DNA of 37,914 nucleotides from an uncultured Candidatus Saccharibacteria bacterium (GTDB lineage: Bacteria; Patescibacteriota; Minisyncoccia; Minisyncoccales; UBA1441): the NCBI GenBank assembly GCA_964623505.1, contig CAZUSP010000003.1, positions 1 through 37,914 on the forward strand, in the 5' to 3' direction. The notes under the pieces were generated by a model. That model ran no database searches. It saw only the letters and a program-made list of their open reading frames with translations, and had not been told where the DNA came from. A program made the position numbers and the translations under genes. Shown piece after piece: positions 5,581-36,901 of this stretch. Position 1 is the stretch's first letter; every line of letters begins with the position of its first letter.

Positions 5581-5581
5581 G

Positions 5582-7308: not shown

Positions 7309-7314
7309 ACATTC

Positions 7315-7458: not shown

Positions 7459-7463
7459 TCTGA

Positions 7464-15868: not shown

Positions 15869-18800
15869 ATGTTTAAAATAAAAATAATAAGCCGTGTTTT
15901 GGCTGTAATCTTGATTCTTTTCGCCGCCTTAAGCACTCAAGCCGCGGTTTCGGTCAACCTGTCGCGAACAGAGACCGTCCGACATCTCGAAAACATACAA
16001 GAGGCCCTCAGATACTCCCTCCAGGATATCTTTGTCCGAAACCAGTTCGAGCGAATCAATGAGACAGCCGCCATGGCCACCGTTACCCGGTGCATCAACT
16101 CCGAAGCCGTCACTTACTGGATGACCGAAGTTCCAGTCCAGATAATCAAGGAGGTTGTGTGGCGAACGGCCCACTTGGCCAATGCTTTAATATCCAGTAA
16201 TACCATTGCTGTTTTGATCGAATCAATTGAACAGCTGACCATCAATCAATCCAAGCGGATCATTACCGAGTGGATGAAAGAAAACAGCTTGAGAGCAGTC
16301 AGTGGCGATTTAAGAGGATTCTACGAAGATCACCGCCGGGAAAAACACCGGCCTAAAATTCAATACACGATCGTTTACCATCCTGCCGGCAAAGATCGGG
16401 GACGAGTGGTGGCTGAATTTCGCTCACCTTATTCAAGTTCTCCCCCGACCGTTACCTCGCGCACTGTTTGGGACGTCCATGCTTGGCAAAAAACTGGGCA
16501 AAAAGAAATTCCCCCGTTTATCATTAGAATAAGCGGACCGGTCCATGAAAGAAATAGCCTTTTCCGTTGGGTTGAACAACCAAAAATTTCTGTTTCTTTT
16601 CCGGCCCAAGTTCCCAATATTTCAGTTGAAAATAAAACCAGCTTCTGGCAGAAATTGTTCGGTGGAATCATTGGATGGGGCCAGGAAAAAGCAAAAGGCT
16701 TGGCTGCCCGACTGACGCCTTCTCCCCAATCCTCAGACCGGAACGAGATCATAAAGCTTCAAGACGCCGTCAAAGAACTTCGTGAAATCGTCGAGAACGG
16801 ATCTGCTCCAAAAATAGAACCTGCTTTGGATCAAAATCTGTCCAACCTAATTGGCGACCTGTCAAAGGTGACTTCCAGCTTATCTGGATTGTCGGCAGAA
16901 AGCCAGATGATTAGTAAAGAAATGGCTCAAATCGCCAAGTACAGCACCGAAATAATGAGATGGCAAGCCGAAAATGAGCAAGGTAATCCCTCGGTCGCTG
17001 CAAAACCAGCGGTTGCCGCGCCAGAAGACAATCAAGAGAAAAAACCCGAATCCAGCTCTGCTCTCTGCCAAATAAACTCCTCGTCGCCGCCGGCTCATCA
17101 TCCCGTTGTTTTGAATGAAATAGCCTGGATGGGCCGAACCACATCCGCCAACCATGAATGGATTGAACTAAGAAACATCTCCGATAAAAAGATATCGCTG
17201 GCTGGCTGGCAGCTCTTCAATCGAAATCAGAATTTGATGGTTGTTTTCGAGAAAGATAAGGCCATCGAGCCCCAAGGATATTTTCTTCTGGTAAGAACAA
17301 ACAAAGAGAACGTGCCCGAAGCCAGCCCTGACTTGATCTATCCCGGCGCCGTCAAGAATCGAGACGAAGCCATTTATCTCTTCAATGAAAAATGTTCATT
17401 AATTGACCTGGCGCAGGCCAATCCAGAATGGACGGCCGGAGACAACGGCACCAAGAGAACAATGGAAAGAAGAGATAATTTGGAGTGGCAGACCAGCTTG
17501 CTGCCCCATGGCACTCCTCGGCAAGAAAACAGCCGTGGTTATCAGGAAGCCAACTCCCCCGTCCAGTCGGTGGTCGTAAACAGGACCCCCGTTAATACCG
17601 CAACTCCGGCGAACACCGACACTCAGGCACCAACGGCTAATGCCGGACCAGACCAAATAGTCAACTATAACGAAGTTGTTGTTTTGAACGCCAGCCTGTC
17701 TGGAGATAATGTCGGCATTGTGACCTATCGCTGGGACACCAGTAATGACGGGCTTTACAACCACGTCTCGTCTAAACACACTCTGGAAATTCCAGCCGGC
17801 CATTTCTCGCCTGGACAGCATGCTATTACTTTGCAGGTAGCTGATGCCGCTGGCCACACCAACCAGGACAGCCTGATCATCACCGTTCGAGAAATCCCGC
17901 CGATTCTGATCAGCGAAGTTCAATTTCACGGAGCAACCAATCACGACGAATTTATTGAGTTCTACAACCCCCGCTCCGAAGACGTCACTCTGGACCGATG
18001 GTCAATACGTAAAAAGACCTCCGGTGGAAAGGAAAGCCCCTTAGTCAGTTCGTCTGCCTTTAAGGGCATCATTCCGGCTCATAGCCACTTCTTGGTGGCC
18101 AGCCCGCAAAAGCAAGCCGACGGGACCCCTCATTACCAAGGAGGAACCGAACCTGATTTATACTATTCCGGACAAACCTATCACTTCGCGGCCAACAATA
18201 CCATCTTGCTTTATGCGCCAAATGGAACTCTGGTGGATAAGGTCGGGTATGGTACAGCCAGTGATTATCTGGGAAGCCCTTTTCCCGATAATCCTCCTGC
18301 CGGAATGAGCTTGGGCCGTCGCTGGAACCAAGAAAACGAAAGCTATTACAATACCCGCGATAATTCATCTGATTTCGAGCATCAAGTTCCTACGCCCGGA
18401 CAAAGAAACCAGTTCTTTCCCGGCCAAGAAGAAACTGATCTCCCAGAACAAGAAGAAACTGATCTCCCAGAACAAGAAGATGTTTTCCAGGACGGCTCGG
18501 CTGAATCCCCATTTCTGCTCTCTTCTTGTCACGACCTTGTTTTAATGGAAGAGCACCTGGGAGCATTCTATCGGTTAATCAACGACATTGACTGCCAAGA
18601 AACCGAAGATTGGAATGGCGGACAAGGATTCCGACCCATTGGCTTAGTTGACGATGTTCCTTTTATCGGGCAGCTCGACGGTCAGGGATTCTCTATCACG
18701 GGAATACATCAAGAACAGACCGACGGTCATTCTGGGTTATTCAACTGGTTAAGTTATCCGGCAAGAATCATTAACCTTAACTTGAAAGAATCCTATGCCG

Positions 18801-19591
18801 TTGCCTCTGGTTTCTACTCCGGGCTTTTAACCGGAAGAGTCAGTGGCCAAAGCAGTCAAGAGCCGGTCGTCATTGAGCGAGTGACGGTCCAAGGAGAGTT
18901 GGTGACTTCTCACTCGGCCACTAACGCTCCCCAACATGCCGGCGGCCTGATAGGCGGCGCAAGCCGGATCCAGGTTACCGATTCTCATACCAACATCATC
19001 ATCACCGCCAATCAAACTGGCCGCAACGACTCTACTGTTGGCGGGATGTTCGGTCAAGTTGAGTTAGCCGTGATTAAACGATGCTCTAGCCGGGGACAAA
19101 TATCAGGGCAGAGAAACATCGGTGGATTAATCGGCAAAAGCTGGTATGATGTCGTCATCCAAGAAAGCTACTCGCAAGTTAATATTGCGGGCCACAGCTT
19201 CTTGGGCGGATTCATTGGATCGACCAAGACGCTGGTCGGGACAATAAGCGATAATTACGCTACGGGAAATGTAATCGGCTGCTCTGAATCAGGCCAAATG
19301 ATTGGAGGATTTGTGGGAGAGTCCAATCAATGGATAGATCGGTCCTATTCTATCGGCCAAGTGCGGGGAGCCGGCGCCCGTGGATTCATTGGCGGACTAC
19401 CAATAAATCGGACCAACCCCGTGCGCTCCAGCTACTATGATGTAAACACCTCCGGCCGAAGCGGAAGCAACTTTGGCGCTATCGGGCTGACAACCGTTCA
19501 GATGAAACAGCAACTCAGTTTTTCGACATGGAACTTTGAACAAATATGGCGGATTAACGACAGCTATCCATTACTGCGCCAGAATCACTGA
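15869..19591 (+). CDS. Secreted LTD-PKD-LTD-GLUG multidomain surface protein (1240 aa)
   Basis: Signal peptide. Lamin-tail-like domains at aa ~411-553 (VVLNEIAWMG...NHEWIELRN...LAGWQL) and ~677-845 (ILISEVQFHG...DEFIEFYNP...LDRWSI). PKD-like module at aa ~588-674 (ANAGPDQIV...YRWD). The C-terminal ~360 aa carry repeated GLUG-type motifs (AGGLIGG, VGGMFG, IGGLIGK, LGGFIGS, IGGFVGE, GFIGGL). Confidence 0.85.
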   Translation: MFKIKIISRVLAVILILFAALSTQAAVSVNLSRTETVRHLENIQEALRYSLQDIFVRNQFERINETAAMATVTRCINSEAVTYWMTEVPVQIIKEVVWRTAHLANALISSNTIAVLIESIEQLTINQSKRIITEWMKENSLRAVSGDLRGFYEDHRREKHRPKIQYTIVYHPAGKDRGRVVAEFRSPYSSSPPTVTSRTVWDVHAWQKTGQKEIPPFIIRISGPVHERNSLFRWVEQPKISVSFPAQVPNISVENKTSFWQKLFGGIIGWGQEKAKGLAARLTPSPQSSDRNEIIKLQDAVKELREIVENGSAPKIEPALDQNLSNLIGDLSKVTSSLSGLSAESQMISKEMAQIAKYSTEIMRWQAENEQGNPSVAAKPAVAAPEDNQEKKPESSSALCQINSSSPPAHHPVVLNEIAWMGRTTSANHEWIELRNISDKKISLAGWQLFNRNQNLMVVFEKDKAIEPQGYFLLVRTNKENVPEASPDLIYPGAVKNRDEAIYLFNEKCSLIDLAQANPEWTAGDNGTKRTMERRDNLEWQTSLLPHGTPRQENSRGYQEANSPVQSVVVNRTPVNTATPANTDTQAPTANAGPDQIVNYNEVVVLNASLSGDNVGIVTYRWDTSNDGLYNHVSSKHTLEIPAGHFSPGQHAITLQVADAAGHTNQDSLIITVREIPPILISEVQFHGATNHDEFIEFYNPRSEDVTLDRWSIRKKTSGGKESPLVSSSAFKGIIPAHSHFLVASPQKQADGTPHYQGGTEPDLYYSGQTYHFAANNTILLYAPNGTLVDKVGYGTASDYLGSPFPDNPPAGMSLGRRWNQENESYYNTRDNSSDFEHQVPTPGQRNQFFPGQEETDLPEQEETDLPEQEDVFQDGSAESPFLLSSCHDLVLMEEHLGAFYRLINDIDCQETEDWNGGQGFRPIGLVDDVPFIGQLDGQGFSITGIHQEQTDGHSGLFNWLSYPARIINLNLKESYAVASGFYSGLLTGRVSGQSSQEPVVIERVTVQGELVTSHSATNAPQHAGGLIGGASRIQVTDSHTNIIITANQTGRNDSTVGGMFGQVELAVIKRCSSRGQISGQRNIGGLIGKSWYDVVIQESYSQVNIAGHSFLGGFIGSTKTLVGTISDNYATGNVIGCSESGQMIGGFVGESNQWIDRSYSIGQVRGAGARGFIGGLPINRTNPVRSSYYDVNTSGRSGSNFGAIGLTTVQMKQQLSFSTWNFEQIWRINDSYPLLRQNH
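18425..18480 (+). repeat. 24-nt in-frame tandem repeat (2.3 copies), encoding QEETDLPE
   Basis: CAAGAAGAAACTGATCTCCCAGAA occurs at 18425-18448 and 18449-18472, then a partial third copy follows. Confidence 0.9.
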
Positions 19592-19770: not shown

Positions 19771-20952
19771 ATGAAGATACTTGGCATTGAAACCTCATGC
19801 GATGAGACCGCCTTGTCTGTTCTGACGATGAAAGGCCGCTTTCCCGACATTGAGATAGAAACATTAAGCAACATCGTGTCTTCACAGACCGAGGTCCACC
19901 GCCCCTGGGGCGGAATCGTTCCCAATCTAGCTCGTCGAGAGCACCAGAGGAATTTGGTTCCCCTGTTGAAAAAGACTTTAAAGGAATCCAAATCTGTCCA
20001 TAGCCAGTATCGATGGCCGTTAACAAAACAAGAAAAGAATATCATAAAACAAGTTCTGGGGCGAGAAAAAAACCTCGGCCGAAAACTAAAATTCTTTCTG
20101 CATCGGTATGGCCGGCCGGATCTAGACCTGATTGCCGTTACTGTCGGCCCGGGACTAGAGCCAGCCCTCTGGATTGGGACCAACTTGGCCCTCGCTCTAT
20201 CCAAGATATGGGGCGTGCCCATAATACCAGTTGACCACATTGAAGCCCATATCATGGCCAACTGGCTGACATTTCCTAAACCAGAAAGATGGCCCATGGT
20301 CGCCCTGGTCGTTTCCGGCGGCCACACCGAACTGGTCTTGATGAACGGTCCCGGTTCTTACGAGATAATCGGACAGACTCGGGATGATGCCGCTGGTGAG
20401 TGTTTTGATAAGGCCGCTCGAGTTCTGGAATTGGGCTATCCCGGTGGACCGGCTATCTCTGAACTGGCCACTCGGTGGCGACAAACAGATCAAGCCCATG
20501 TACCGGAACAAATAAAACAAATAACTCTTCCCCGACCAATGATCCAGTCCCCTGACTACAACTTTAGCTTCTCGGGGTTGAAAACAGCCGTTCTCTATCG
20601 CCACCAAAGATACCCACAACAACTAAAAAACTCTCCTTTCTACCGGTTGAAAATGGCCGCCGAAATCGAAGAGGCCATCACTGATGTTTTGGTCGCCAAA
20701 ACCATAAAGGCCGCCCAAGACCATAGGGCCCAAACCATACTCCTGGGGGGCGGGGTGGCCGCCAATGGGTGGTTGCGGCTTAATTTAGAAAAAGAAGTCA
20801 AAAGGATCGGGCGCTCTTTCTTTGTTCCTCCGGCCGATCTTTGCACTGACAATGCCGCCATCATTGCTCTGACTGGAGCCATCCACTCAAAAAAAGCACG
20901 ATTATTTGATACAATTGAAGTTAAGGCTAATCTTAATCTAAATAATGGATAA
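19771..20952 (+). CDS. tsaD: tRNA N6-adenosine threonylcarbamoyltransferase TsaD
   Basis: MKILGIETSCDETA..., IAVTVGPGLEPAL, VDHIEAHI, VSGGHTEL, DDAAGECFDK, FSFSGLKT, LGGGVAAN. At 393 aa it is longer than typical. Confidence 0.9.
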   Translation: MKILGIETSCDETALSVLTMKGRFPDIEIETLSNIVSSQTEVHRPWGGIVPNLARREHQRNLVPLLKKTLKESKSVHSQYRWPLTKQEKNIIKQVLGREKNLGRKLKFFLHRYGRPDLDLIAVTVGPGLEPALWIGTNLALALSKIWGVPIIPVDHIEAHIMANWLTFPKPERWPMVALVVSGGHTELVLMNGPGSYEIIGQTRDDAAGECFDKAARVLELGYPGGPAISELATRWRQTDQAHVPEQIKQITLPRPMIQSPDYNFSFSGLKTAVLYRHQRYPQQLKNSPFYRLKMAAEIEEAITDVLVAKTIKAAQDHRAQTILLGGGVAANGWLRLNLEKEVKRIGRSFFVPPADLCTDNAAIIALTGAIHSKKARLFDTIEVKANLNLNNG

Positions 20953-22996
20953 ACGTTTTAATTTCCGAGAAGCTGAACCCAGAATATATCAAAAATGGGA
21001 AGAGGGTGGTTATTTCAATCCCGACAAATTACCCGGTAAAAGAAAAAGAACCTTCACCGTTGTTATCCCCCCGCCGAATATAACCGGCTCTCTGCACATG
21101 GGTCACGCTCTTAATGCCGCCGTTCAGGATGCCGTTGTTCGTCGGCAAAGAATGATGGGCGATCGAACTCTTTGGCTGCCGGGTTTTGATCACGCCGGAA
21201 TCGCCACCCAGAATGTGATTGAAAAGAAGCTATGGAAAGAAAAGAATTTGACCCGATTCGATCTGGGCAAACAAGAATTCATCAGAGAGATCTGGCGGTG
21301 GAAAGAGGAATATCAGGAAATAATCACCGGGCAGCTGAAAAAGATCGGAGCCTCCTGCGACTGGTCCCGCACCAGATTCACCCTGGATCAAGATTATAGT
21401 CAGGCCGTTCAAAAAGCTTTCCATCATTATTATCAAAAAGGATGGATTTATCGCAAAGAAAGAATCGTTAACTGGTGCCCCCGCTGCGGAACCGCCCTTT
21501 CCGATCTGGAACTGGAGCATCAACCCGAGAAAACTCATCTTTGGTATATAAAGTACCCATTAAATGACCATCGCCATCTGACCATCGCCACCACCCGCCC
21601 CGAAACAATGTTCGGCGACCTGGCCGTAGCCGTCAACCCGAAAGATAGACGCTATCAAGAGCTCATCGGTCAAAAAGTCAACCTCCCTTTAACCGATCAA
21701 CATATTCCGATTATTGCCGATGAAATGATCGATCCTGAATTTGGAACCGGTGCCTTAAAATTAACTCCGTCCCACGATCCAATAGACGCTGAGATTGGCG
21801 AGCGTCACCAGCTTGGCTTAAAGACGGTCATTTCTCCCGAAGGAAAGTTAAATGACCTGGTTCCGGAAGCATATCGCCAGCTGACTCTAGCCGAAGCGAG
21901 GAAAAAGATAGTTGCCGATCTTTCCGCCCTAGAGTTGATAGATAAGATCGAGGATTATGAACACGATGTTCCGATCTGTGAAAGATGCCGAACAAAGGTT
22001 GAAACCGTCCCTTCCGAACAGTGGTTTTTAAAAATGGAACATCTGGCTAAAATGGCCGCTGAACCAGTTCGGTCCGGCCAGATAAAATTTCATCCCGGTC
22101 GATGGAAAAAGGTTTATTTGAGCTGGCTGGACAACGTTCAGGACTGGTGTCTTTCAAGACAGATATGGTGGGGGCATCCTATCCCGCTGGAAAACGAAGA
22201 AGATGTTCTTGATACCTGGTTCAGCTCGGCCCTCTGGCCAATAGCGACCATGGGCTGGCCCGATGAGACCGATGATCTAAAAAAATTCTATCCAACGAAT
22301 TTTCTTTCAACCGCGACCGAGATAATAAATCTCTGGGTTGCACGGATGATCTTTTCTGGTCTAGAGTTCAAACAAAAGATACCTTTCTCCGAGGTCTACT
22401 TCCATCCAACTATATTGGACAAAAAAGGAAAAAGAATGAGCAAATCTTTGGGCACCGGCGTGGACCCGCTTGACCTGATATCTCGGTATGGAGCTGATGC
22501 CACTCGCTTTGGCCTTCTTTGGCAAACCGGTTCAAGCCGCCAAGATATAAGATTCGGCGAAGAAGACATCGCCATGGGTCAGAAATTCACGACTAAGATC
22601 TGGAATGCTTCCCGGTTCATCATCAGCCAGGCTGAAAAACATGAAGCTGGTTTAATCAGCCTCAAGAACAATCAAGAATCAGAGATCGTCTCTAAAACAA
22701 AACAAATGATCGCTACCGTTGATCGCCTAATGGATCGGTATCGCTTTGATCAATCTGCTCAAACCATCTATCACTTTTTCTGGCATGATTTTTGCGACCA
22801 GTATTTAGAACAGGCGAAAGCCAAAATAGATGAACCAGGGACCAGAATGACAACACTAAATGATCTGTTTTATGTGCTGACCAGCACCTTGAAGCTCTTA
22901 CACCCATTTATGCCATTTGTCACCGAAGAAATATATCAAAAGCTGCCTTTAGCCGAAAAAAAAGATTCCCTGATGATTGAAACCTGGCCCGATTAA
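20945..22996 (+). CDS. valS: Valine--tRNA ligase (short form, 683 aa)
   Basis: PPPNITGSLHMGHAL (HIGH), editing-domain TTRPETMFGD, WCLSRQIWWGH, DTWFSS, KMSKSLG. Overlaps tsaD by 8 nt. Confidence 0.9.
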   Translation: MDKRFNFREAEPRIYQKWEEGGYFNPDKLPGKRKRTFTVVIPPPNITGSLHMGHALNAAVQDAVVRRQRMMGDRTLWLPGFDHAGIATQNVIEKKLWKEKNLTRFDLGKQEFIREIWRWKEEYQEIITGQLKKIGASCDWSRTRFTLDQDYSQAVQKAFHHYYQKGWIYRKERIVNWCPRCGTALSDLELEHQPEKTHLWYIKYPLNDHRHLTIATTRPETMFGDLAVAVNPKDRRYQELIGQKVNLPLTDQHIPIIADEMIDPEFGTGALKLTPSHDPIDAEIGERHQLGLKTVISPEGKLNDLVPEAYRQLTLAEARKKIVADLSALELIDKIEDYEHDVPICERCRTKVETVPSEQWFLKMEHLAKMAAEPVRSGQIKFHPGRWKKVYLSWLDNVQDWCLSRQIWWGHPIPLENEEDVLDTWFSSALWPIATMGWPDETDDLKKFYPTNFLSTATEIINLWVARMIFSGLEFKQKIPFSEVYFHPTILDKKGKRMSKSLGTGVDPLDLISRYGADATRFGLLWQTGSSRQDIRFGEEDIAMGQKFTTKIWNASRFIISQAEKHEAGLISLKNNQESEIVSKTKQMIATVDRLMDRYRFDQSAQTIYHFFWHDFCDQYLEQAKAKIDEPGTRMTTLNDLFYVLTSTLKLLHPFMPFVTEEIYQKLPLAEKKDSLMIETWPD

Positions 22997-24043: not shown

Positions 24044-24071
24044 AAAACCCCCCGGTTAAGGGAGGGTTTTT
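24044..24071. terminator. Bidirectional hairpin terminator between convergent genes
   Basis: AAAACCCCCC-GGTTAA-GGGAGGGTTTTT: 10-bp stem with one mismatch, with A and T runs on either side. Confidence 0.6.
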
Positions 24072-24075
24072 CTAC

Positions 24076-24510
24076 TCAACTAAGCCCGGTAATAAAAATG
24101 ACCGCCGCCGGGATAATTCGAGCCAAAAGGGCAACAATCATTCCAACCACCGCAAAGGTGATGATCCGAGTGGCTCTGGTGGTTTTGCTCGGATCGCCAG
24201 CCGAAGTCATAAAGGTCAGGGCTCCATAAAGAACCATTATCGTAACTATAACCACCAGCAGATAAAACACCCAATTCACCACATGATGAACTGCCCCAAC
24301 CATACAGATGATGCCCCAATCTTCATGAGTATCGCTGCTAATTTCATCTCCTCGATGATAAGACTCTTCCCCTAGTCGAAAACTAGCTCGCAGAGTGCAG
24401 CCGGTATATTCTCCCTCCGGCAGAATGCTCCGGTTGTCTCTACTGCCCAGGGCCAGAATCGGAACCAGCAGGATAAAAGTTATTGTGAAAAGAAAAATTC
24501 TTTTACTCAT
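24076..24510 (-). CDS. CPR-type pilin-domain protein (TrbC/VirB2-like, T4SS pilin family), 144 aa
   Basis: Signal peptide and a short Cys-containing ectodomain. Ends in the two-helix pilin signature VVNWVFYLLVVIVTIMVLYGALTFMTSAGDPSKTTRATRIITFAVVGMIVALLARIIP. Confidence 0.75.
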   Translation of the reverse strand: MSKRIFLFTITFILLVPILALGSRDNRSILPEGEYTGCTLRASFRLGEESYHRGDEISSDTHEDWGIICMVGAVHHVVNWVFYLLVVIVTIMVLYGALTFMTSAGDPSKTTRATRIITFAVVGMIVALLARIIPAAVIFITGLS

Positions 24511-24555
24511 AATTTAATATTCAAACCGGATACATTATAACCTATTTGCAAGACA

Positions 24556-24760
24556 AAACAAAGACCGTCAAGAAAAGCGGTCTTGTTTGAGCTCTCGCGG
24601 TGCAGTATTCTTAAAGTAGTCCGAACGCATTTCGCCGCCTGCGGCGGCGAGGAAGCCCCCACCAAAAATGAGTGGCTTCGCCGCACCGATGACAATTTCA
24701 AGTTTTTTAGCGAGCAAAGTCCGCTAGTGAAATCTTAAAAGATTTCATCTTTGGCGGCAA
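24556..24760 (-). promoter_or_regulatory. Promoter-like element, structured GC-rich RNA and intrinsic terminator upstream of the pilin gene (leader or independent sRNA)
   Basis: On the minus strand: TTGCCG (24760-24755), 17 nt, TAAGAT (24737-24732). Nested complementary segments follow: GCTCGC/GCGAGAGC, CGGTGC/GCACCG, GCGGCGAAGCCAC...GTGGGGGCTTCCTCGCCGC and GCCGCC-GCA-GGCGGC. The terminator hairpin is AAGACCG/CGGTCTT (24584-24561) plus a T-rich tail. The pilin ATG lies about 45 nt further on. Confidence 0.3.
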
Positions 24761-24788
24761 ATTCTTTTATGGAATAGAGAGAACACAA

Positions 24789-25319
24789 TTACAAACCCTG
24801 ATTTGTGGTTCGCGATTGCCGAGCACGCTTCACGAATTCATCTCGGAGTTGTTCAGCAACCTCACGAGAAAGGGCTGGTAACCTTCCTTCTGATCCAGCT
24901 CCCCAAGCTCCATGACGAGAAACTTGCGCGCTTGCACCAGCGGTTTGAATATTCAAGTCAGACAATCCTAAGATACGATCAATCACTCCGCGATGAATAT
25001 CAACGTTCTGGATTCTATCGTACGGCACCGTGACGTATTTTTTCCAAATTACTCCATGCTCTTTTCGGAACCCATCCTCTCGAAGTTCATACCGATAGAA
25101 GCGGTAAATAAGTTTGGCCCAAATCCAGAAAAAGATAAGAAGGGCCGGGATCATAATCCACAACCACTTCAAGAATCCAAACGAAAACTCATCGCCGCCA
25201 TCAGTGGTTCCGCTGAAAACCGCCGACAACCAAACACCCAAAAATATCAATGCTAAAAACCAACGCAATATGAGGCTAATAAAGAACGACCAAACTGCTT
25301 TAGGGTCAAGTTGTTGCAT
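24789..25319 (-). CDS. Membrane protein with bacterial PH domain (YdbS/DUF304-like)
   Basis: Two TM helices, then YRYELREDGFRKEHGVIWKKYVTVPYDRIQNVDIHRGVIDRILGLSDLNIQTAG. Confidence 0.75.
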   Translation of the reverse strand: MQQLDPKAVWSFFISLILRWFLALIFLGVWLSAVFSGTTDGGDEFSFGFLKWLWIMIPALLIFFWIWAKLIYRFYRYELREDGFRKEHGVIWKKYVTVPYDRIQNVDIHRGVIDRILGLSDLNIQTAGASAQVSRHGAWGAGSEGRLPALSREVAEQLRDEFVKRARQSRTTNQGL

Positions 25320-25356
25320 AATTACTAAGTTAATGAATTAAACACGACCTTTTACT

Positions 25357-25365
25357 ATTATACCA
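25357..25365 (-). promoter_or_regulatory. Extended -10 element TGGTATAAT
   Basis: Minus-strand TGGTATAAT about 37 nt upstream of the ATG at 25319. There is no good -35. Confidence 0.35.
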
Positions 25366-25483
25366 TAATGATTAAAAACTTTTCTTTCCCCCAAACGAGG
25401 CCGCCAATTCGCTTTTGCCTCCAAAATCCCATACAAAATAATCGCCGAGCGAGGCGAACCGAAATCGCCTACAAAATTCTTAC

Positions 25484-25569
25484 TGGTGCGGGCGGAGAGA
25501 CTCGAACTCTCACGGACTAAGTCCACAGGATCCTAAGTCCTGCGCCTATGCCAATTCGGCTACACCCGC
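25484..25569 (-). tRNA. tRNA-Leu (anticodon UAG), class II, CCA encoded
   Basis: 86 nt. GCGGGTG acceptor, anticodon arm CAGGA-CTTAGGA-TCCTG, long variable arm GGAC-TTA-GTCC, T arm GAGAG-TTCGAGT-CTCTC, then CGCCCGC-A-CCA. Confidence 0.9.
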
Positions 25570-25578
25570 CCACCGAAC

Positions 25579-26043
25579 CTATAGTCCGACAATATGTCGG
25601 ACAGCCACCGGAATAGCTCGAGCCAACAAAGCAATAACCATACCGACAATAGCAAAGGTAATGGTCTTCGTTGCCTTTGAAGTCTTGGCCGCATCGCCGG
25701 AAGAAGTCAAAAACATGAAAGCGCCGGCCAAAATCATCACCATCACAACAGTCATGATAATGTAGAAGATCCAGTTAGTGAGATAATGAATTGTGGCCAA
25801 CAAGCAGACCAAACCCCAGTCATTCTCCGTTCCTGGGTCGACATCATGACAGCTTGGTCCATAACATCCCTTTCCGATTCTTTTATTCGAAAGATTAAAT
25901 TCAACTTTTATGTCACAGGCTTGAACCATATCAGGATTATATGGTCTTCTCCCTGCGGGGCCAGTAGATAAAACCGTTGAAGGCACGGCCATCATGGAGA
26001 CAACCATAACCAATGAACTCAAAACCAAAAGCAACTTTTTCAT
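25579..26043 (-). CDS. CPR-type pilin-domain protein, 154 aa (paralog of 24076..24510)
   Basis: Signal peptide. C-terminal LTNWIFYIIMTVVMVMILAGAFMFLTSSGDAAKTSKATKTITFAIVGMVIALLARAIP aligns residue-for-residue with the other pilin. Confidence 0.75.
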   Translation of the reverse strand: MKKLLLVLSSLVMVVSMMAVPSTVLSTGPAGRRPYNPDMVQACDIKVEFNLSNKRIGKGCYGPSCHDVDPGTENDWGLVCLLATIHYLTNWIFYIIMTVVMVMILAGAFMFLTSSGDAAKTSKATKTITFAIVGMVIALLARAIPVAVRHIVGL

Positions 26044-26061
26044 ATTTTAAAAATCAATTAA

Positions 26062-27666
26062 TTAACCTGGTGTTAAAGACGTTCTTATTATAGCAACTAT
26101 AGCCCAACTAAGCAAGATTATGGTCAAACCAATAGCCCCATACATGATCGTCTTTTGCCCTCGGGCAAATTTGGCCGGATCTCCGCCCGAAAATATCATC
26201 TGGAAGCCTCCAATAATAACAATTAGACTCATGCCGGCTATGCCCAGCCAAAACAATAACCTAACCAAATAGCTGAACAGTTCCATCAAAGAGGTGTGCT
26301 CCAAAGGGGATTTAAACCTTATACCCAGCAGATTTCCACCATTGCCAGGGCCAGCTGCTCCACTATTGCTCCCAGAAGCACTCCCAGCCAAAGTTCGACA
26401 GCTAGCTGAAGCGATTATATTCTTCGCCCCGGAAGATCCGTCTTTTGCCAAATGATACTCATATTTCTTATCGGGTTGAAGCGCTTTATCAGTATGGGTA
26501 TTCTGGCCTGCTTGAGCGCCGGTTAAATGTTGGTCCGTCCGACCGCCCTCGCGAAACAAACTAAAAGTATTGTCTGGAGCTCGGTAGGTTATTATAATCT
26601 CAGACTCGCTTTGCCCTTTGCAAGACAAGCTAACATTGGCATAGTGGGCTGTTATTATTTTGGTTTGCCCGCCCGTAAATTCGATCAGGCAATGCTCGGG
26701 TTCTTCAATCGCTGAAGGGCTACACCCCTCCCAATGAGTAAATGATACATCCTTGTCGGCCGGATGACGACGAGGGACCGAAAAAACAAATCTTTGCCTC
26801 CCGCTGATTTGATCCCCTGAAAGCGAAAAATCCGTTTCTCTTTCTGCGGCGTTGATAATCGGTAAACGTTGTCTAACCATCACCCCCCTGTTCGGAGAAT
26901 CCCCCTCGACCAGACTTTTGACCGTTAAATTATTCGGCTCAGGCTTAAGAATTTGAGACACATCACCATAAACAGCGGTCACTGTTTTGGTCACTCCACC
27001 CGAAACATTAATCGAACACGTACGACGGCCAAGCGTAGAAACCGAGTCACATCCTTGCCAACGATCAAACACCTTATTTCTGTCGGAGGCATGGGTCTCT
27101 GGCGCCGTTAAGTTTTTATTAATAGGACTGGTTTCCGTTATGATGTAATTAGTTGTCTGGCCGTCAATAAGAACACCTGCCGGCTCTGAATTAACTCTAA
27201 GGATATTAGAAGGGGTAGTTGCCTTTGGCGCATAAATAGCCGTAATTGTGTCACTCGTCGCGCCGCTTCCGGACTTGTAATTGCAAGTGCTTCCCCTGCC
27301 CGCCTCACAACGGCCCTCCCATCTCAAGAAACCAGAGCCGTCAAAGCTATTCGGAGCTATATAGCTCGTCATAAGTCCGTCTTCCTGACAGATATCAGCA
27401 ACACATTGAAATTCTGTCGATCCGGTCGAGCATAGCCCAATCCCTTGCTTCCTCATTTGAACCCCCTTTAGCGCATCGCCTCCCCTTTCTGCTTTAACAG
27501 TCAGGGTAAAAATGGCTTCAGTGCAAGGAGGCGCGGCAACATTGGCTTTCAGAATACGATTAAGATTATTCTCGATTCCTCCGAAATAAAATAAACTGGC
27601 GCCGGCCATGATTGAGACCAAAAATAATCCGGCGGCTGAAAATTTTAACAATTTTTCTCGATCCAT
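26062..27666 (-). CDS. Adhesin-like ectodomain fused to a C-terminal pilin domain (534 aa)
   Basis: N-terminal anchor. Three InlB-B-repeat-like modules (FLRWEGRCEAGRGSTC...ITAIYA; FDRWQGCDSVSTLGRRTC...VTAVYG; FTHWEGCSPSAIEEPEHC...ITAHYA). One Fn3-like module and a Gly/Ser linker. The last 75 aa (nt 26065-26289) carry the pilin signature LLFWLGIAGMSLIVIIGGFQMIFSGGDPAKFARGQKTIMYGAIGLTIILLSWAIV. Confidence 0.75.
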   Translation of the reverse strand: MDREKLLKFSAAGLFLVSIMAGASLFYFGGIENNLNRILKANVAAPPCTEAIFTLTVKAERGGDALKGVQMRKQGIGLCSTGSTEFQCVADICQEDGLMTSYIAPNSFDGSGFLRWEGRCEAGRGSTCNYKSGSGATSDTITAIYAPKATTPSNILRVNSEPAGVLIDGQTTNYIITETSPINKNLTAPETHASDRNKVFDRWQGCDSVSTLGRRTCSINVSGGVTKTVTAVYGDVSQILKPEPNNLTVKSLVEGDSPNRGVMVRQRLPIINAAERETDFSLSGDQISGRQRFVFSVPRRHPADKDVSFTHWEGCSPSAIEEPEHCLIEFTGGQTKIITAHYANVSLSCKGQSESEIIITYRAPDNTFSLFREGGRTDQHLTGAQAGQNTHTDKALQPDKKYEYHLAKDGSSGAKNIIASASCRTLAGSASGSNSGAAGPGNGGNLLGIRFKSPLEHTSLMELFSYLVRLLFWLGIAGMSLIVIIGGFQMIFSGGDPAKFARGQKTIMYGAIGLTIILLSWAIVAIIRTSLTPG

Positions 27667-27668
27667 GA

Positions 27669-28193
27669 TTAAGATTTTTTAAATATGAATCCGAAATAGT
27701 AATCGCTTGGCTCAAACTGGTCAATAATCTGAAAACCTAACCGGTCAATCATTATTCTGATCTGCTCTGGAAAAACCGGATTTTGCCCCTGCCTGATCGG
27801 CGCCGAACTGTTCCAATCGATGACCATTAGTTTCCCCCGGGGTTTCAAAACACGATGAGCTTCCGACAAAACGGCTTCACGGTTCTCAACCTGAAACATA
27901 ACATTGGCCATCACCACTACATCCAAAGAATCATCCGGCAGACCCGATCCTCTCAGGGCCGACAGGTCGCGCCGAAGAAACCGGATATTGTTCAAATAAC
28001 TATGACGAGCCTTGGCTTCCAAAGCCAGCAAATAGCTCTCTTGAATATCAATCGCATAAACCAGCCCGTGCATTAGATATCGGGCCATTCCCAGAGCCCA
28101 CTGACCCGGTCCGGTTCCAAAATCCGCCCCATTCATTTTGGAATCAAGTCCAAGTTTCCCCAAAAGATGTTCTATGTCTAAAATATTGGACAT
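27669..28193 (-). CDS. Class I SAM-dependent methyltransferase
   Basis: 174 aa with motif I ADFGTGPGQWA, an acidic loop (VYAIDI) and motif-IV-like VVMANVMFQV. Starts 3 nt after the gyrA stop and ends 2 nt before the next gene. Confidence 0.75.
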   Translation of the reverse strand: MSNILDIEHLLGKLGLDSKMNGADFGTGPGQWALGMARYLMHGLVYAIDIQESYLLALEAKARHSYLNNIRFLRRDLSALRGSGLPDDSLDVVVMANVMFQVENREAVLSEAHRVLKPRGKLMVIDWNSSAPIRQGQNPVFPEQIRIMIDRLGFQIIDQFEPSDYYFGFIFKKS

Positions 28194-28196: not shown

Positions 28197-30668
28197 CTAT
28201 TGTTTACTTTCCTCCAGCAAACAGGCGGCCGAAGCCACCTTATCTCCGGGAGCCAGCTTCATGATCTTCACCCCCGTCGTCGCCCGACCAAAAATTGAAA
28301 TGGTTTTCACTTTGGTTCTGATGATATTGCCCTTGGTGGAAACAACGATCAGGTCGGACTCTTCGTTATCAATAAGTTTAGCAAAAATAAGGTTGCCTGT
28401 CTTGCCCCCCAGTTTTGCCGTAATAATTCCCTGGCCGCCCCGACTTTGCCGGCGATAATTGGCCATGACCGTTCTCTTGCCATAACCCTTTTCACTCAAG
28501 ATCAAAAGTTGAATCTTTTTTAGATCAGTTCCGACCCTGATTACCGCCAAGCCAACAACTTCGTCATCTTTGCCCAAAGAGATGCCCCTGACCCCGGCTG
28601 TTACCCGGCCCGTTGCCCGAACTCCCTTTTCGGGAAAAAGAATTGACTTGCCTTGCCGCGTAACAATCATTATTTGATCATCGCCGCTGGTTTCAGCCAC
28701 GGCTTTCAACCAGTCGCCTTTTTTAAGCTTAATAGCCTGAAGTCCGCTTTTCCTAATATGCAAATATTCTTTCTTGTCTGTTCTTTTGATCATTCCTTTC
28801 TTGGTGGCCATAACCAAATAGTTTTGCTTGGCCCCGGTTTTTTGATTGAGCACCGACAACACTCTTTCGTTGGCCTCAATCGGCAGATAATTAGCCAGTC
28901 CTCTTCCCCGGCTGACCCGGCTTCCCTCTTCTATCTCATAGGCCGGTAAATCATAGACCTTCCCGGTGTCCGTAAAGAACAGCAGCTGATCATGGGTCGA
29001 AACCGAGATGAAGTGTTCAACAATATCGCCCTCAATCGTTTTCATCCCCACGATCCCGCGCCCGCCTCTTTTCTGTAATTTATAGACTTCGGGCTGATTT
29101 CTTTTGATGTATCCCTTTTGAGTGATAATAATGAAATTCTCTTGATCGGGAATCAGATCTTTCTTCGATATCTGTTTAACTGATCCGGCAATTATCTCGG
29201 TTTTTCTCTCGTCTCCGTGTTTTTTCTTGACCTCGGCCAACTCCTGCTGAATAACCTTTTCAACTTTTTTCGGACTGGCCAATAAACTCTTCCATTCTTT
29301 GATCCTCTTCTCAATGTCCTTAAGTTCTTTTTCTATCTCGATTCTCTCCAGTTTGGCCAGACGATGAAGTTTTATCTCTAAAATAGCCTCGGCCTGAACC
29401 TGGCTTAATTTGAAATTCTTGATCAAATTACGAGCGGCATCAATCCGGTCTTCGGATTTTTTAATAACCGCAATCACTTCATCAATGTTCGCCAAGGCGA
29501 TCATTAGCCCGGTCAGGATATGCTGTCGTTTCAGGGCCCGGTCAAGATCAAACTTGGTTCGACGAACAACCACCTCCCGGCGGTGATTCAAATAATGAGT
29601 TAAAATATCAACCAACGAAAGAACCCTTGGCTGGATGCCGTCTACCAGGGCAACCATGTTGATATAATGCTTTTTTTCTAGGTCCGTATAGCGATAAAGC
29701 TGATTCAAAATTCTCTGCGGAAAGCCCTGCGGGGATATGTCTAAAACTACCCTCAATCCTTCCCGGTCAGACTCATCTCTGATGCTCTTAATGCCCTTAA
29801 TCTTTTCTTGGCTGGCCAGATCGGCTATTTTCGCGACCAGAGCCGCCTTGTTAACCCGATAGGGAATCTCCGTGATGATAATTTGAGCCCCTTTTCCTTT
29901 TTCAACTATCTCAGCCCGGCCGCGATTTAAAACCCCGCCCTTGCCCTGTGAATAGGTTGAAACCAGCTCTCCCTGCCCATAAATTACGCCGCCGGTCGGC
30001 AGATCCGGCCCTTTGACAAATTGGAACAGGTCTTCGGTCGTCGCCTCGGGATTATCAACCAGATAATTAAGCGCATCGCAAAGTTCGCTTAAGTTGTGGG
30101 GCAGGATATTGGTGGCCATGCCAACGGCAATGCCCACCGTGCCATTCAACAGTATTTGGGGCACCGGCGAAGGCAGAACCGAAGGCTCTTGAAAGGTTCC
30201 ATCATAATTCTCAACGAAATCAACTGTTTCTTTTCCAATGTCGGCCATAATGTCTTCCCCAAAGGAAGATAGTTTGGCTTCGGTATAGCGCGGAGCGGCT
30301 GGCGGATCGGAATCAATTGACCCAAAATTTCCCTGCCCTATCGCCAGTGGATACCTTCGGACAAAATCCTGGGCCAGCCCCACCATGGCATAATAGACCG
30401 AAGTGTCGCCATGAGGATGATATCGCCCCAGACAATAACCAACAATGGCCGAAGACTTCTTGGTTGGAGAAGAGTGCTTTAACCCCATCTCATACATCGA
30501 ATAAAGTATTCGACGATGAACCGGTTTGAGGCCGTCCCGCACATCAGGCAAAGCCCGAGAAACAATGACCGACATGGCATAGTCCAAATAGGACTCGCGC
30601 ATTTCATCAACTATTTCTCGGGGAACTATTTCTTTGGCCGCTTTAGTTGGATTTTCCGTTTTGCTCAT
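28197..30668 (-). CDS. gyrA: DNA gyrase subunit A
   Basis: 823 aa. SRALPDVRDGLKPVHRRILYSM, HPHGD, catalytic-Tyr region APRYTEAKL, and C-terminal beta-pinwheel repeats. Confidence 0.95.
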   Translation of the reverse strand: MSKTENPTKAAKEIVPREIVDEMRESYLDYAMSVIVSRALPDVRDGLKPVHRRILYSMYEMGLKHSSPTKKSSAIVGYCLGRYHPHGDTSVYYAMVGLAQDFVRRYPLAIGQGNFGSIDSDPPAAPRYTEAKLSSFGEDIMADIGKETVDFVENYDGTFQEPSVLPSPVPQILLNGTVGIAVGMATNILPHNLSELCDALNYLVDNPEATTEDLFQFVKGPDLPTGGVIYGQGELVSTYSQGKGGVLNRGRAEIVEKGKGAQIIITEIPYRVNKAALVAKIADLASQEKIKGIKSIRDESDREGLRVVLDISPQGFPQRILNQLYRYTDLEKKHYINMVALVDGIQPRVLSLVDILTHYLNHRREVVVRRTKFDLDRALKRQHILTGLMIALANIDEVIAVIKKSEDRIDAARNLIKNFKLSQVQAEAILEIKLHRLAKLERIEIEKELKDIEKRIKEWKSLLASPKKVEKVIQQELAEVKKKHGDERKTEIIAGSVKQISKKDLIPDQENFIIITQKGYIKRNQPEVYKLQKRGGRGIVGMKTIEGDIVEHFISVSTHDQLLFFTDTGKVYDLPAYEIEEGSRVSRGRGLANYLPIEANERVLSVLNQKTGAKQNYLVMATKKGMIKRTDKKEYLHIRKSGLQAIKLKKGDWLKAVAETSGDDQIMIVTRQGKSILFPEKGVRATGRVTAGVRGISLGKDDEVVGLAVIRVGTDLKKIQLLILSEKGYGKRTVMANYRRQSRGGQGIITAKLGGKTGNLIFAKLIDNEESDLIVVSTKGNIIRTKVKTISIFGRATTGVKIMKLAPGDKVASAACLLEESKQ

Positions 30669-32250: not shown

Positions 32251-33939
32251 TCAGAAACCCAGAGTACAAGATCCGGCCGTCCGGAACCAGTAGCCCTGTC
32301 CTTCCTCTAAACGAGTCGGTCGAACATACTCCCTGGCTGAAGGGCTCCAGCCCCAGATAGAACTGACCTGGCAGTCGCCGGTGATCCGGTCTATTCCGAT
32401 TCCTCCGGCCGGAGCGCCAACCATGTGCCAACCAGCGCCGACCAGAGAGACGCTACCCCGCCAAGGCGAACCAGTGACGGGAAGGCGGCAGGGTTGATCA
32501 ACCCCGATCCAGTATCCCTGTCCCGGAACCATTGATTCGGGTTTGTAATAACTATTGGCTGATCGAGACCATCCCCAGATAACACTATTCGCACAATGAG
32601 AGGAGATGGTTGAAAAGCTTAAAGAGCCGCTGGCCGGCCAAGAGACCATGTTCCAACCGGGGCTGAGGGATATATTTGAAGCCGCAGAATCCGGCGGAAC
32701 CGGAGTCGGTGGAGCTGCTCCGGCAAAGCTGCACTCAACCGAACCAGAGACCGCCCTCCGGATATTGGGACAGGCACAATCATAGAACTGCCAATCCAGC
32801 CTTGGACGACCCGCTGCTATGCCTCTAGAATCAACTCTAACTGATCCCTGATGCCAAACACCCATCTGCCTTTCATTTGAACTTAGCGGGATCACTCTCA
32901 TCAATCTTGGCTCTTGAACACTCCCGAGATAAAGAGTTGTTCCGGGAGGATTGATATAGCGATAGTTGATAACCACGAAGTCAGAACCTCTCTGGCCACA
33001 ACTAGGTTCTATAACGAAAGAAGTGGGTAGCGCCGCTAAAGTCTGGCAGGTGGCTGGTGAGCCGATATTAGGCCAGCCGCTGGCACTGCTTTTAACCTGA
33101 TAAACATAGCTCTGCCCCTGTTTCAAGTTAGTATCGGAAAAGCTGACCGTTTCATAATCACCGTGCTGTCGGCGCGATAATTTGCTTAATTGAACTCCAT
33201 CTCGATAAAGATAAAAATCGTCGTAGCCGCCACGAACTTTAATGCTTAAGTCGATTGCGCTTTGATTTTTGGCCCGACAGGTAATTTCAGCTGAAGAAGC
33301 GGGGCAGTTGCAGCAACATCTTTCGCAAGGGAAAATCCGGCTGCAAACACTAAGCGTTGTTTGCGGATCTCTCATTCCGGCCGGACAATCCATGAGACAG
33401 CCGACTCCTTTCCACCGGCACTCACCCGGACAACCCCACTTTTCCATACATACGCTGTTACAAGAAGCCGCTTTCGGCTTCTCTTTCTCCGGATCAGAGG
33501 ACTGCCGCCCATAAGAACACTGTGTTTCGGCCAAAATCTTATTGGGCGGACATGATGTGTTTCCTCGCCAGAGATAATAAGTATATTGCCTTTCTGGTTC
33601 TATGCGAAAAGAGCCCCAGTGGCCATAATTAAAAACCTTGTCGTCAACAATGGATCCTGAACTGCTATACGGAATCAACCAAGCTCCGATCGTGGCCACC
33701 GTCTTCTGGTCTTCCTCATCCATTTTCCGTTGATTGTTGAAATAAGAGCCCTTGCGGACAATATGAACGATCTCAATCGCATTGGAAAAGCCATAATTAA
33801 CTGTCACCGAGTTGCCGTTATGAACGCAGGTGATCCATCCGGCCTCCCCGCCTTGCGCTGATGACGTTTGAATCAGCGCCATCAGACCAAAAATACCAAC
33901 GAACAACACCACCAAAGAAAACAATGCTTTGTTTTTCAT
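32251..33939 (-). CDS. Secreted Cys-rich surface protein with Fn3-like modules and two C-terminal GW...IWGW...GQGYW modules
   Basis: 562 aa with a signal peptide (…LIQTSSAQG). Contains 15 Cys within aa 130-221 (CNSVCMEKWGCPGECRWKGVGCLMDCP...CERCCCNCP). Fn3-like segments, a PT linker, then a tandem ~65-aa module pair. Confidence 0.8.
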   Translation of the reverse strand: MKNKALFSLVVLFVGIFGLMALIQTSSAQGGEAGWITCVHNGNSVTVNYGFSNAIEIVHIVRKGSYFNNQRKMDEEDQKTVATIGAWLIPYSSSGSIVDDKVFNYGHWGSFRIEPERQYTYYLWRGNTSCPPNKILAETQCSYGRQSSDPEKEKPKAASCNSVCMEKWGCPGECRWKGVGCLMDCPAGMRDPQTTLSVCSRIFPCERCCCNCPASSAEITCRAKNQSAIDLSIKVRGGYDDFYLYRDGVQLSKLSRRQHGDYETVSFSDTNLKQGQSYVYQVKSSASGWPNIGSPATCQTLAALPTSFVIEPSCGQRGSDFVVINYRYINPPGTTLYLGSVQEPRLMRVIPLSSNERQMGVWHQGSVRVDSRGIAAGRPRLDWQFYDCACPNIRRAVSGSVECSFAGAAPPTPVPPDSAASNISLSPGWNMVSWPASGSLSFSTISSHCANSVIWGWSRSANSYYKPESMVPGQGYWIGVDQPCRLPVTGSPWRGSVSLVGAGWHMVGAPAGGIGIDRITGDCQVSSIWGWSPSAREYVRPTRLEEGQGYWFRTAGSCTLGF

Positions 33940-33954
33940 TTTTTTATTATCTGA

Positions 33955-33982
33955 ATTATACTCAGACCAATTATAAAATCAA
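33955..33982 (-). promoter_or_regulatory. Sigma70-type promoter TTGATT-16 nt-TATAAT for the 562-aa gene
   Basis: Minus strand: TTGATT (33982-33977), 16-nt spacer, TATAAT (33960-33955). The ATG at 33939 lies 15 nt downstream. Confidence 0.45.
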
Positions 33983-33992
33983 TTCTCTTAAC

Positions 33993-34021
33993 TTGCAATA
34001 GATTGCTTTTCGTTATATATT
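33993..34021 (+). promoter_or_regulatory. Sigma70-type promoter TTGCAA-17 nt-TATATT for the S1-domain gene
   Basis: TTGCAA at 33993-33998, TATATT at 34016-34021. The ATG at 34032 is only 10 nt after the -10, so the leader would be very short or absent. Confidence 0.45.
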
Positions 34022-34031
34022 ATAAGACATT

Positions 34032-36892: not shown

Positions 36893-36901
36893 CCTTTGAA
36901 A

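Follow-up and report, generated by a model that had tools for sequence, protein, structure and literature searches.

We analysed a 37,914-nucleotide stretch of an uncultured, ultra-small Patescibacterium (contig CAZUSP010000003.1 of assembly GCA_964623505.1, positions 1 to 37,914; hereafter the window), in which three minus-strand genes encode proteins of 144, 154 and 534 amino acids (aa; p144, p154 and p534) that end in a common helical hairpin. All three pass the gathering threshold of PF18895, a family of type IV secretion system (T4SS) pilins. Our favoured reading, which we consider fairly probable, is that a Paceibacteria-type Patescibacterium has here, at a fixed chromosomal site, a VirB2-like pilin array whose hairpins are assembled by a remotely encoded T4SS and whose largest member, p534, bears an adhesin. 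VirB2-like pilin arrays of Patescibacteria have already been described, and a location away from virB4 is ordinary for them; what is new here is a hairpin that covalently carries adhesin-type modules, at one terminus or the other depending on the paralogue, together with a deeply conserved unit of methyltransferase (MTase), optional solute-binding protein (SBP), pilins and tRNA-Leu.

In the window and its related loci (contigs designated by L-numbers), the pilins fall into two types. Type A invariably occupies the first position behind the MTase gene (p534, L005_500, L002_151 and L006_116) and shares the tail ...LVRLLFW.GI.G...M.FSGGDP.KF..G.K..., while type B carries two invariant Cys (GCTLR...DWGLIC) ahead of the hairpin. 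The pilin genes and the parts of p534 are the following.

26062..27666 (-): p534, whole gene, type-A pilin with an inserted ectodomain of ~400 aa; PF18895 match at residues 462-526
27571..27666 (-): p534 residues 1-32, predicted N-terminal signal peptide or signal anchor (hydropathy segment 6-32; helix 3-26 in the model)
27232..27477 (-): p534 module 1, residues ~64-145, Cys-paired repeat with the end F.RWEGRC...C...ITAIY (module profile and motif scan)
26968..27213 (-): p534 module 2, residues ~152-233, best-conserved copy, TTNY...LTAP...F.RWQGCDS...C...TVTAVY
26641..26886 (-): p534 module 3, residues ~261-342, third repeat copy, which aligns to the sole such module in L005_500
26392..26637 (-): p534 beta-sandwich of seven strands, residues 344-425, between Cys349 and Cys423 (modelled)
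26302..26391 (-): p534 Gly/Ser/Asn-rich flexible linker, residues 426-455, ending at the conserved (N/S)PL motif
26065..26301 (-): p534 pilin hairpin, residues 456-534 (helix 460-491, loop SGGDPAKFARGQK, helix 497-531)
25579..26043 (-): p154, type-B pilin, with a predicted signal peptide, a small Cys-bridged beta-hairpin region and the helical hairpin
24076..24510 (-): p144, second type-B pilin, in the segment of the array past the tRNA gene

The shared hairpin and the ectodomain of p534

The PF18895 matches cover the C-terminal ~60-70 residues of each protein and reach 28.7 bits for p144, 29.1 bits for p154 and 31.7 bits for p534 against a gathering score of 26.6 (E 1e-6 to 1e-7), so that the family named in an initial annotation of this DNA was the right one for all three. 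Each protein combines a predicted N-terminal export signal with a C-terminal hairpin of two hydrophobic helices and a short net-positive loop (S-G-G-D-P-x-K...K); hydropathy, loop charge and structural models thus give the hairpin, polar/basic loop and export signal of PF18895 pilins. The tails of p144 and p154 are 51% identical, that of p534 is 20-25% identical to either, and the loop motif S-x-G-D-P/A-x-K is common to the three. Among homologues, this motif always keeps its Gly and nearly always its lysines, its Asp position being variable (D/N/S), and the (N/S)PL motif ahead of the hairpin is nearly invariant across diverse members of the tail alignment. The initial annotation had named two outcomes that would reduce the tail to a generic two-helix membrane anchor, namely no profile match and no conserved motif in homologues; both a match and a motif were found, and the conservation of the loop and its lysines marks a feature of the family. 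A six-frame scan of the window with a hidden Markov model (HMM) built from the three tails recovered p144, p154 and p534 and no fourth copy.

An exhaustive search of 1.84 billion representatives returned 3255 relatives at E<=1e-3. The top 148 comprise 74 simple small pilins, 10 proteins with an N-terminal extension of 110-200 aa, 10 with an extension of >200 aa, 37 with 2-8 tandem hairpins per polypeptide, and 17 matches to the ectodomain only. Since the long N-terminal extensions include beta/gamma-crystallin and TIG/Kre9 domains, the hairpin is a recurrent carrier of extracellular domains across the family. For the small window pilins, word-indexed searches gave 19 homologues, all of them PF18895 members, in which C43, W76 and C80 of p154 are invariant. 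The p154 model places helices at residues 73-113 and 118-152. Over their full lengths p144 and p154 are 39% identical, and p144 is 52-56% identical to L002_142 and L005_142.

The 37 tandem proteins among these best relatives of the p534 tail include P0029, P0035, P0038, P0091 and P0100. P0029, which we checked by eye, has a signal peptide and four hairpins, each with its own SGGDE.K loop. These proteins may serve as polyprotein precursors or represent ring or filament subunits joined in one chain, and we found no published description of tandem multi-hairpin pilin polypeptides.

VirB2-family pilins (TraA, VirB2, TrbC) mature by removal of long leaders and, before assembly, are oriented in the membrane with a cytoplasmic loop and two external termini. 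The same N-out/C-out topology is predicted for the window hairpins from the positive-inside rule, since each loop carries three Lys/Arg against one Asp in p144, p154 and p534 alike. That both ends of the hairpin lie on the same side of the membrane is further suggested by fusions at opposite termini, which are N-terminal in type A (the window and L005) and C-terminal in type B, where PF18998 domains are attached (L006_643 and L010_724). The window proteins therefore resemble the pilins of F, pED208 and T pili in their (predicted) leader, two hydrophobic helices, short basic loop and probable orientation. They differ in that the predicted mature proteins are larger, with a Cys-bridged region in type B and a 400-aa ectodomain in p534, and in that none of the three matches PF04956 (TrbC/VirB2) at E<=1, the second family against which the initial annotation had proposed to compare them. 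Comparison with solved pilins gave no sequence match and no significant fold match. Relatives do touch PF04956 below its threshold (E 3e-4 to 4e-3, 17.6-21.4 bits against a cutoff of 27.9), and all three window proteins give sub-threshold matches to NF045849, an NCBIfam model for a pilin-like conjugal transfer protein of the Mycoplasma integrative and conjugative element (ICE). They are unlikely to be type IV pilins of the PilA kind, because the conserved domain is a C-terminal hairpin and neither a class III signal peptide (G|F/M-TLIE) or N-terminal hydrophobic-helix architecture nor a match to any type IV pilus family was found.

In p534 a large extracellular region rich in Cys, and then a Gly/Ser linker, come ahead of the tail, an arrangement already recognised in the initial annotation and now recovered by module HMM, Cys pattern and structural model. 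The ectodomain contains every one of the 12 Cys of p534, paired module by module, which fits an extracytoplasmic location. A putative signal cleavage site (AGA|S at 23/24) was placed by inspection. A module HMM built from exhaustive-search matches aligned to residues 84-153 (E 1e-5), 160-240 (E 1e-19) and 308-348 (E 2e-6), and the copies were also found by motif scan (consensus L.V.S.G..GV.I...G.TNY...LTAP...F..W.GCDS...C...V...TVTA.Y). The same module is repeated many times in large, secreted proteins of 800-1855 aa that have no pilin domain.

These three copies correspond to the modules that the initial annotation had described as InlB-B-repeat-like, but this description is borne out at the level of remote homology only, because Pfam is silent and the profile-profile match covers the C-terminal half of the module. 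Specifically, p534 has no direct Pfam match to PF18998, InlB or Fn3 families, its modules do not reach the PF18998 gathering threshold (23.6 bits), and both p534 and its isolated modules miss PF18998 even at E<=10. Type-B pilins of relatives, in contrast, carry C-terminal PF18998 extensions scoring 55 bits (L006_643) and 91 bits (L010_724). Residues 108-236 of p534 align with residues 377-506 of L006_643 (phmmer, E 1.4e-10), and HHalign matched p534-type modules to the modules of the relatives' pilin fusions with 91.9% probability (E 7e-7) over 31 columns only, four of the six modules in the target profile being PF18998-positive. The p534 modules thus appear to be remote homologues of PF18998 rather than members of it. 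Like PF18998 (Flg_new_2) surface proteins they have a module of ~80 residues, the end F..W.G.C...C...V.A.(Y/F), a conserved Cys pair and tandem repetition; unlike them they carry a distinct N-terminal signature, TTNY...LTAP.

Downstream of the modules, an AlphaFold2 model computed from an enriched alignment gave a confident seven-stranded beta-sandwich (predicted local distance difference test, pLDDT, 70-87), a linker without secondary structure in which pLDDT dips to 46 at residues 431-440, and the hairpin at pLDDT 89-97. The beta-sandwich had previously been called Fn3-like. A sandwich is indeed predicted, but the best structural matches in Foldseek are the ColG collagen-binding domain (1nqj, E 7e-4), a PPC domain (5sv5) and the C-terminal domain of the C. 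perfringens enterotoxin (overall E about 1e-3, TMt 0.45-0.56). The Fn3-type family Pur_ac_phosph_N was reached below threshold (E 0.0099), and with PPC/collagen-binding and toxin receptor-binding domains as the top folds, the model suggests a ligand-binding-type fold rather than Fn3 specifically.

The exact architecture of p534 appears to be nearly unique. Its relatives were reached only through exhaustive search, and word-indexed searches with the full protein and with the ectodomain alone returned P0002 and p534 itself; among 5.8 billion proteins there is one full-length homologue, at 36% identity. Compared with L005_500, p534 is 74% identical in the tail, 35% in the beta-sandwich and 26% in the remaining ectodomain. 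Since the first gene after the MTase encodes 116, 151, 500 or 534 aa in four genomes and always has the same tail (50-74% identity among the four), p534 is the positional orthologue of an ordinary pilin of 116-151 aa that gained ~400 aa between the signal peptide and the pilin core. The four arrays run as follows (lengths in aa, from the MTase side).

Window: 534, 154, tRNA, bPH_2, 144
L002: 151, 157, tRNA, 142
L005: 500, 150, tRNA, 142
L006: 116, 155, 148, tRNA, 153, 135, 643

Paralogue number, module content and fusion end all vary among close relatives, which points to rapid diversification for host-surface recognition.

Gene order and the methyltransferase

Recomputed open reading frame (ORF) coordinates place p144, p154, p534, the MTase gene and gyrA on the minus strand and reproduce the intergenic gaps first reported for the locus, which are 3 nt between gyrA and the MTase gene, 2 nt between the MTase gene and p534, and 18 nt between p534 and p154. 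Two elements between p154 and p144 had been overlooked in the initial annotation, a tRNA-Leu gene and a bPH_2 gene. The features around the pilin genes are the following.

28197..30668 (-): gyrA, 823 aa, DNA_topoisoIV and six DNA_gyraseA_C domains in Pfam; 3 nt ahead of the MTase gene
27669..28193 (-): class I S-adenosylmethionine (SAM)-dependent MTase, 174 aa, Methyltransf_31/11/25 (E about 1e-16), no signal peptide or transmembrane segment
25484..25569 (-): tRNA-Leu(TAG), 9 nt past the p154 stop (ARAGORN and Rfam, 57.7 bits)
25442..25457 (-): weak terminator-like hairpin, 5-bp stem and T-run, just past tRNA-Leu(TAG) (consensus scan, only suggestive)
24789..25319 (-): membrane protein with a bacterial PH domain (bPH_2), 176 aa (PF03703, 70.3 bits)
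24534..24539 (-): perfect TATAAT without a matching -35, 24 nt upstream of the p144 start codon (read from the sequence)
24044..24070 (-): strong terminator-like hairpin, 10-bp stem and T-run, closing the array and facing the convergent HSP20 gene (consensus scan)

The locus sits in a syntenic frame, common to the contigs of the small-pilin homologues, of Lactamase_B_3, a small ORF, gyrA, MTase, the pilin array, convergent HSP20, PrsW, ValRS and TsaD. Among the window, L002, L005 and L006, gyrA is 81-83% and the MTase 52-64% identical. The tRNA-Leu(TAG) gene stands at the equivalent place in L002 (9873-9957), L005 (2526-2610), L006 (7879-7962), L010 (6797-6881), L014, L015, L018 and L019 (3974-4056). 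In the distant relatives L014, L015, L018 and L019 it marks the end of the array, just before HSP20, whereas in the window's clade extra type-B pilins follow it, PF18998 fusions included; the tRNA-proximal side therefore looks like the growth point of the array. The insertion of bPH_2 between the tRNA gene and p144 is peculiar to the window genome and is not found in the arrays of L002, L005 and L006. Searches around the window array for repeats gave short ones at chance level only.

We then considered how widely the MTase and the pilins occur together. A scan with an MTase alignment, using one genome per species, gave 256 confirmed matches, and the best 80 loci, which were kept, all belong to Paceibacteria-type Patescibacteria. 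A same-strand PF18895-like array lies <=2.5 kb downstream of the MTase in 63/66 loci with enough downstream sequence, and gyrA lies <=4.5 kb upstream in 51/55 loci, with an identity to the window gyrA of 48-83% (median 51%). A gene for a 434-aa SBP of the SBP_bac_8 family stands between the MTase and the first pilin in 61-63 of loci L020-L088 (at 8495-9799 in L032), often with a 4-nt overlap with both. The window contains no SBP_bac_8 homologue, its clade lacking an SBP gene at this locus. In L032, the one locus whose flanking ORFs were compared with Pfam, these ORFs did not include an ABC permease.

Junction lengths, which are lower bounds because longest-ORF starts were used, separate the tight from the loose neighbours: gaps of <=20 nt were found at 56/63 MTase-SBP, 56/57 SBP-first pilin and, where no SBP is present, 8/11 MTase-first pilin junctions, compared with 13/67 gyrA-MTase junctions (median 372 nt). 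Because the short junctions lie there, the conserved and apparently translationally coupled unit is MTase-(SBP)-pilins, with gyrA as a looser neighbour whose tight linkage is specific to the window's clade. Through this coupling two genes that had not been connected with the pilins become candidate parts of their system, with a possible function in modification or uptake. The MTase itself belongs to a generic family, its nearest solved structures being two uncharacterised MTases (3dh0 and 3i9f). It is presumably cytoplasmic, and the pilin loop and a pilin-associated lipid are its candidate substrates.

The MTase could instead be functionally unrelated to the pilins, as a housekeeping enzyme in a stable neighbourhood whose close spacing reflects genome compaction, and to this possibility we give slightly less than even weight. 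It would explain why a generic class I MTase lacks a diagnostic family assignment, why a cytoplasmic enzyme accompanies pilins that are mostly extracytoplasmic, and why three species have the MTase and no downstream array; moreover, the upstream Lactamase_B_3 gene and gyrA are also syntenic, so that the region is conserved as a whole. However, the array is kept within 2.5 kb downstream in 63/66 species although gyrA identity falls to 48%, the short junctions and many 4-nt overlaps fall between MTase, SBP and pilin genes rather than between gyrA and MTase, and the sequence past the arrays is not conserved between loci.

Two cautions attach to the comparison of loci. An apparent SBP-pilin fusion of 646 aa in L051 (3831-5771) was rejected, since in this high-GC genome it proved to be a longest-ORF artefact that overlaps the true SBP gene in another frame; it is a warning for ORF-based surveys of MTase-pilin loci. 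ORFs of at least 300 aa from the ORF caller in L013, L033, L046 and L079 are unverified and were left out.

The initial annotation had also proposed that gyrA and the pilins are co-transcribed. This is plausible as far as p154 and the tRNA gene (gyrA-MTase-p534-p154-tRNA), as the consensus scan found no strong terminator between gyrA and p154. It is unlikely for p144, since the tRNA, the weak terminator-like hairpin and another gene intervene and p144 has a TATAAT of its own; p144 is thus probably a separate transcription unit. The promoter scan gave 18 sites where 11 ± 3.5 were expected from shuffles, none of them convincing (including a 9/12 match inside the 3' end of the MTase gene, 27724-27696), and terminator counts were not above those of shuffled controls.

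Proposed assembly of the hairpins

Pfam scans of the other substantial ORFs in the 38-kb window found no VirB4, VirB6, VirD4, PilB, PilC or prepilin peptidase family, in agreement with the initial annotation; PilB, PilC and prepilin peptidase are in any case irrelevant to the PF18895 class of pilin. Since VirB4 is present in 2417/3035 Patescibacteria assemblies (~80%), the assembly machinery is probably encoded elsewhere in the genome; one genome that shares the arrangement, Parcubacteria bacterium C7867-004 (L057), is itself VirB4-positive. The locus does lie away from virB4, for which it had been called an orphan, but this is not unusual: 1948 VirB4-positive Patescibacteria assemblies have pilins, and these are near virB4 in only 1135 (PMC12102498).

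Quiñonero-Coronel et al. (2025, Microb Genom, PMC12102498) described 441 pilin arrays of 2-11 genes with a mean paralogue identity of 25% (maximum 54%). By the same definition the window holds an array of three genes, in which tRNA-Leu and one bPH_2 gene split p154 from p144. It is like the published arrays in its PF18895 family, its paralogue identity (20-51% between tails, within the reported range) and its monoderm host lineage. It differs in that it lies not in a virB4 cluster but in an MTase-(SBP)-pilin-tRNA-Leu unit that in this clade stands beside gyrA, and in that one member has an ectodomain of ~400 aa. Neither ectodomain-fused pilins nor a link to an MTase, SBP, gyrA or tRNA-Leu is mentioned in PMC12102498 or PMC10633639, and we found nothing further in the literature.

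Under the reading that we favour, a VirB2-like array served from a distance, a monoderm-type T4SS (VirB4/VirB3/VirB6) encoded elsewhere would extract the hairpins from the membrane, and several divergent paralogues would polymerise into a short pilus or a channel-associated surface structure. As the type-A protein in first position, p534 would co-assemble through its conserved hairpin and display a host-binding ectodomain as a built-in adhesin, its expansion consisting of three Cys-paired modules, a ligand-binding-type beta-sandwich and a Gly/Ser tether between signal peptide and hairpin. Pilus formation and adhesion are what we infer from this architecture, as is any role for the MTase. Its counterparts would be tip or minor adhesin subunits, such as VirB5 of T-pili and the PrgB-type adhesins of Gram-positive T4SSs, in that a specialised component of the transfer apparatus contacts the target cell; p534, however, has its binding domains on one polypeptide with a major-pilin-type hairpin and not in a separate protein. 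Because no PrgB-type adhesin was detected in Patescibacteria (PMC12102498), fused pilins may fill this role.

Why Patescibacteria keep T4SSs with pilin arrays, and whether these form a pilus or make host contact, are questions of the field; an array is essential in the one species tested, Southlakia epibionticum (SEML1_0006-0019 region; Wang et al. 2023, PMC10633639; PMC12857230). p534 provides a concrete handle on them, since it predicts the site that touches the host, offers an epitope-sized target for localisation and is a natural test of topology and co-assembly.

Several observations weigh against this reading. There is no T4SS component within the 38-kb window, VirB3, VirB4 and VirB6 do not adjoin the array, and across the 80 related loci the surroundings of the MTase, up to about 8 kb away, have no recurrent ORF of VirB4 size. 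The case for homology to VirB2 depends on the label of the Pfam family and on weak cross-hits. Profile searches of the PDB link the proteins to no solved T4SS pilin and give only spurious matches to transmembrane segments, and the best Foldseek matches of the hairpin stay at E about 1 or above (8dfu, a conjugative pilin of Aeropyrum, was rank 8, E 4.2, TMt 0.60), a bare hairpin having little discriminating power in such a search. The three repeat modules of p534 were modelled at pLDDT <50. An appendage of 450 aa per subunit would be hard to pack, which would leave p534 either as a minor or terminal subunit or as part of something other than a tight filament. The tandem multi-hairpin relatives (37/148) are no easier to reconcile with a filament than with an oligomer embedded in the membrane, and a pilus has yet to be seen for any T4SS of Patescibacteria (PMC12857230).

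The last two points lead to an alternative in which the hairpin stays in the membrane, as part of a ring or channel of the monoderm T4SS or simply as an oligomerising anchor; p534 would then be a surface adhesin that the hairpin tethers to the cytoplasmic membrane, and there would be no extracellular pilus. We think this unlikely, though it deserves to be taken seriously. A pilus is not normally part of T4SSs of the Gram-positive type, and Patescibacteria have so far shown none (PMC12102498, PMC12857230, PMC10633639). Polypeptides with 2-8 hairpins resemble fused ring-forming proteolipids, diverse ectodomains (crystallin, TIG, PF18998) occur on the same hairpin, and the relation to the Mycoplasma ICE protein NF045849, albeit weak, points the same way. 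On the other hand, the loop and the NPL motif are conserved far beyond the needs of a simple anchor, small stand-alone paralogues without an ectodomain dominate (74/148), and cross-hits to TrbC/VirB2 are weak but repeated.

We give distinctly less credence to the idea that the MTase-(SBP)-pilin-array-tRNA-Leu unit of Paceibacteria is a self-standing surface system, in which the hairpins would serve as modular carriers and the coupled MTase would modify the cytoplasmic loop of the pilin or a phospholipid co-assembling with it. The carriers would comprise the N- and C-terminal fusions, the tandem 'polypilins' and the co-encoded SBP, and would present host-binding or nutrient-capturing domains. 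If true, the MTase step would be a form of pilin maturation without precedent for T4SS pilins.

That p534 is a precursor, cut at the Gly/Ser linker or at (N/S)PL to release a secreted binding protein and leave a pilin of ordinary size, is very improbable: a disordered linker does lie directly ahead of the conserved SPL motif, at which the pilin core begins, and leader removal is part of VirB2-family maturation, but the locus has no linked protease gene, leader peptidase requires a site adjoining a hydrophobic segment and the linker site adjoins none, and the C-terminal fusions of L006 and L010 carry the same kind of module without the linker-plus-NPL arrangement.

Other features of the window

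Other ORFs of the window match YchF, rubrerythrin, MscS, a Na/Pi cotransporter, HSP20, TsaD, ValRS, PrsW, FtsH and LTD/PKD proteins in Pfam. Large secreted or surface proteins flank the locus, and the module HMM and motif scan found the p534 repeat module in none of them, nor in any other protein of the window. They are the following.

15869-19591 (+): 1240-aa protein with LTD and PKD domains, conserved in L002 and L005
7464-11357 (-): 1297-aa protein with a BatD-like match
32251-33939 (-): 562-aa protein without a Pfam match
27-1724 (-): 565-aa protein with sub-threshold matches only

Cumulative GC skew reaches its minimum near 34 kb (window ~33940-34890), where gene orientation switches. A replication origin at this place was considered and dropped, as DnaA boxes number 4 against 7.2 expected and form no cluster, and the window contains no dnaA.

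Among the housekeeping genes, the gyrA ORFs of L009 (1348 aa, 3553-7599) and L028 (1216 aa, 4051-7701) are long compared with about 823 aa, and could reflect intein insertion or an ORF-calling artefact. The valyl-tRNA synthetase of the window (20945-22996, +) has 683 aa, compared with 685 aa in L002 and L005 and 856 aa in L019, the short form being that of this clade. Finally, a tRNA-Ile with the anticodon TAT (UAU), not the usual lysidine-modified CAT type, is encoded at 36821-36894 (+), and such genes are also present in L012 (2279-2353) and L018 (1331-1406).

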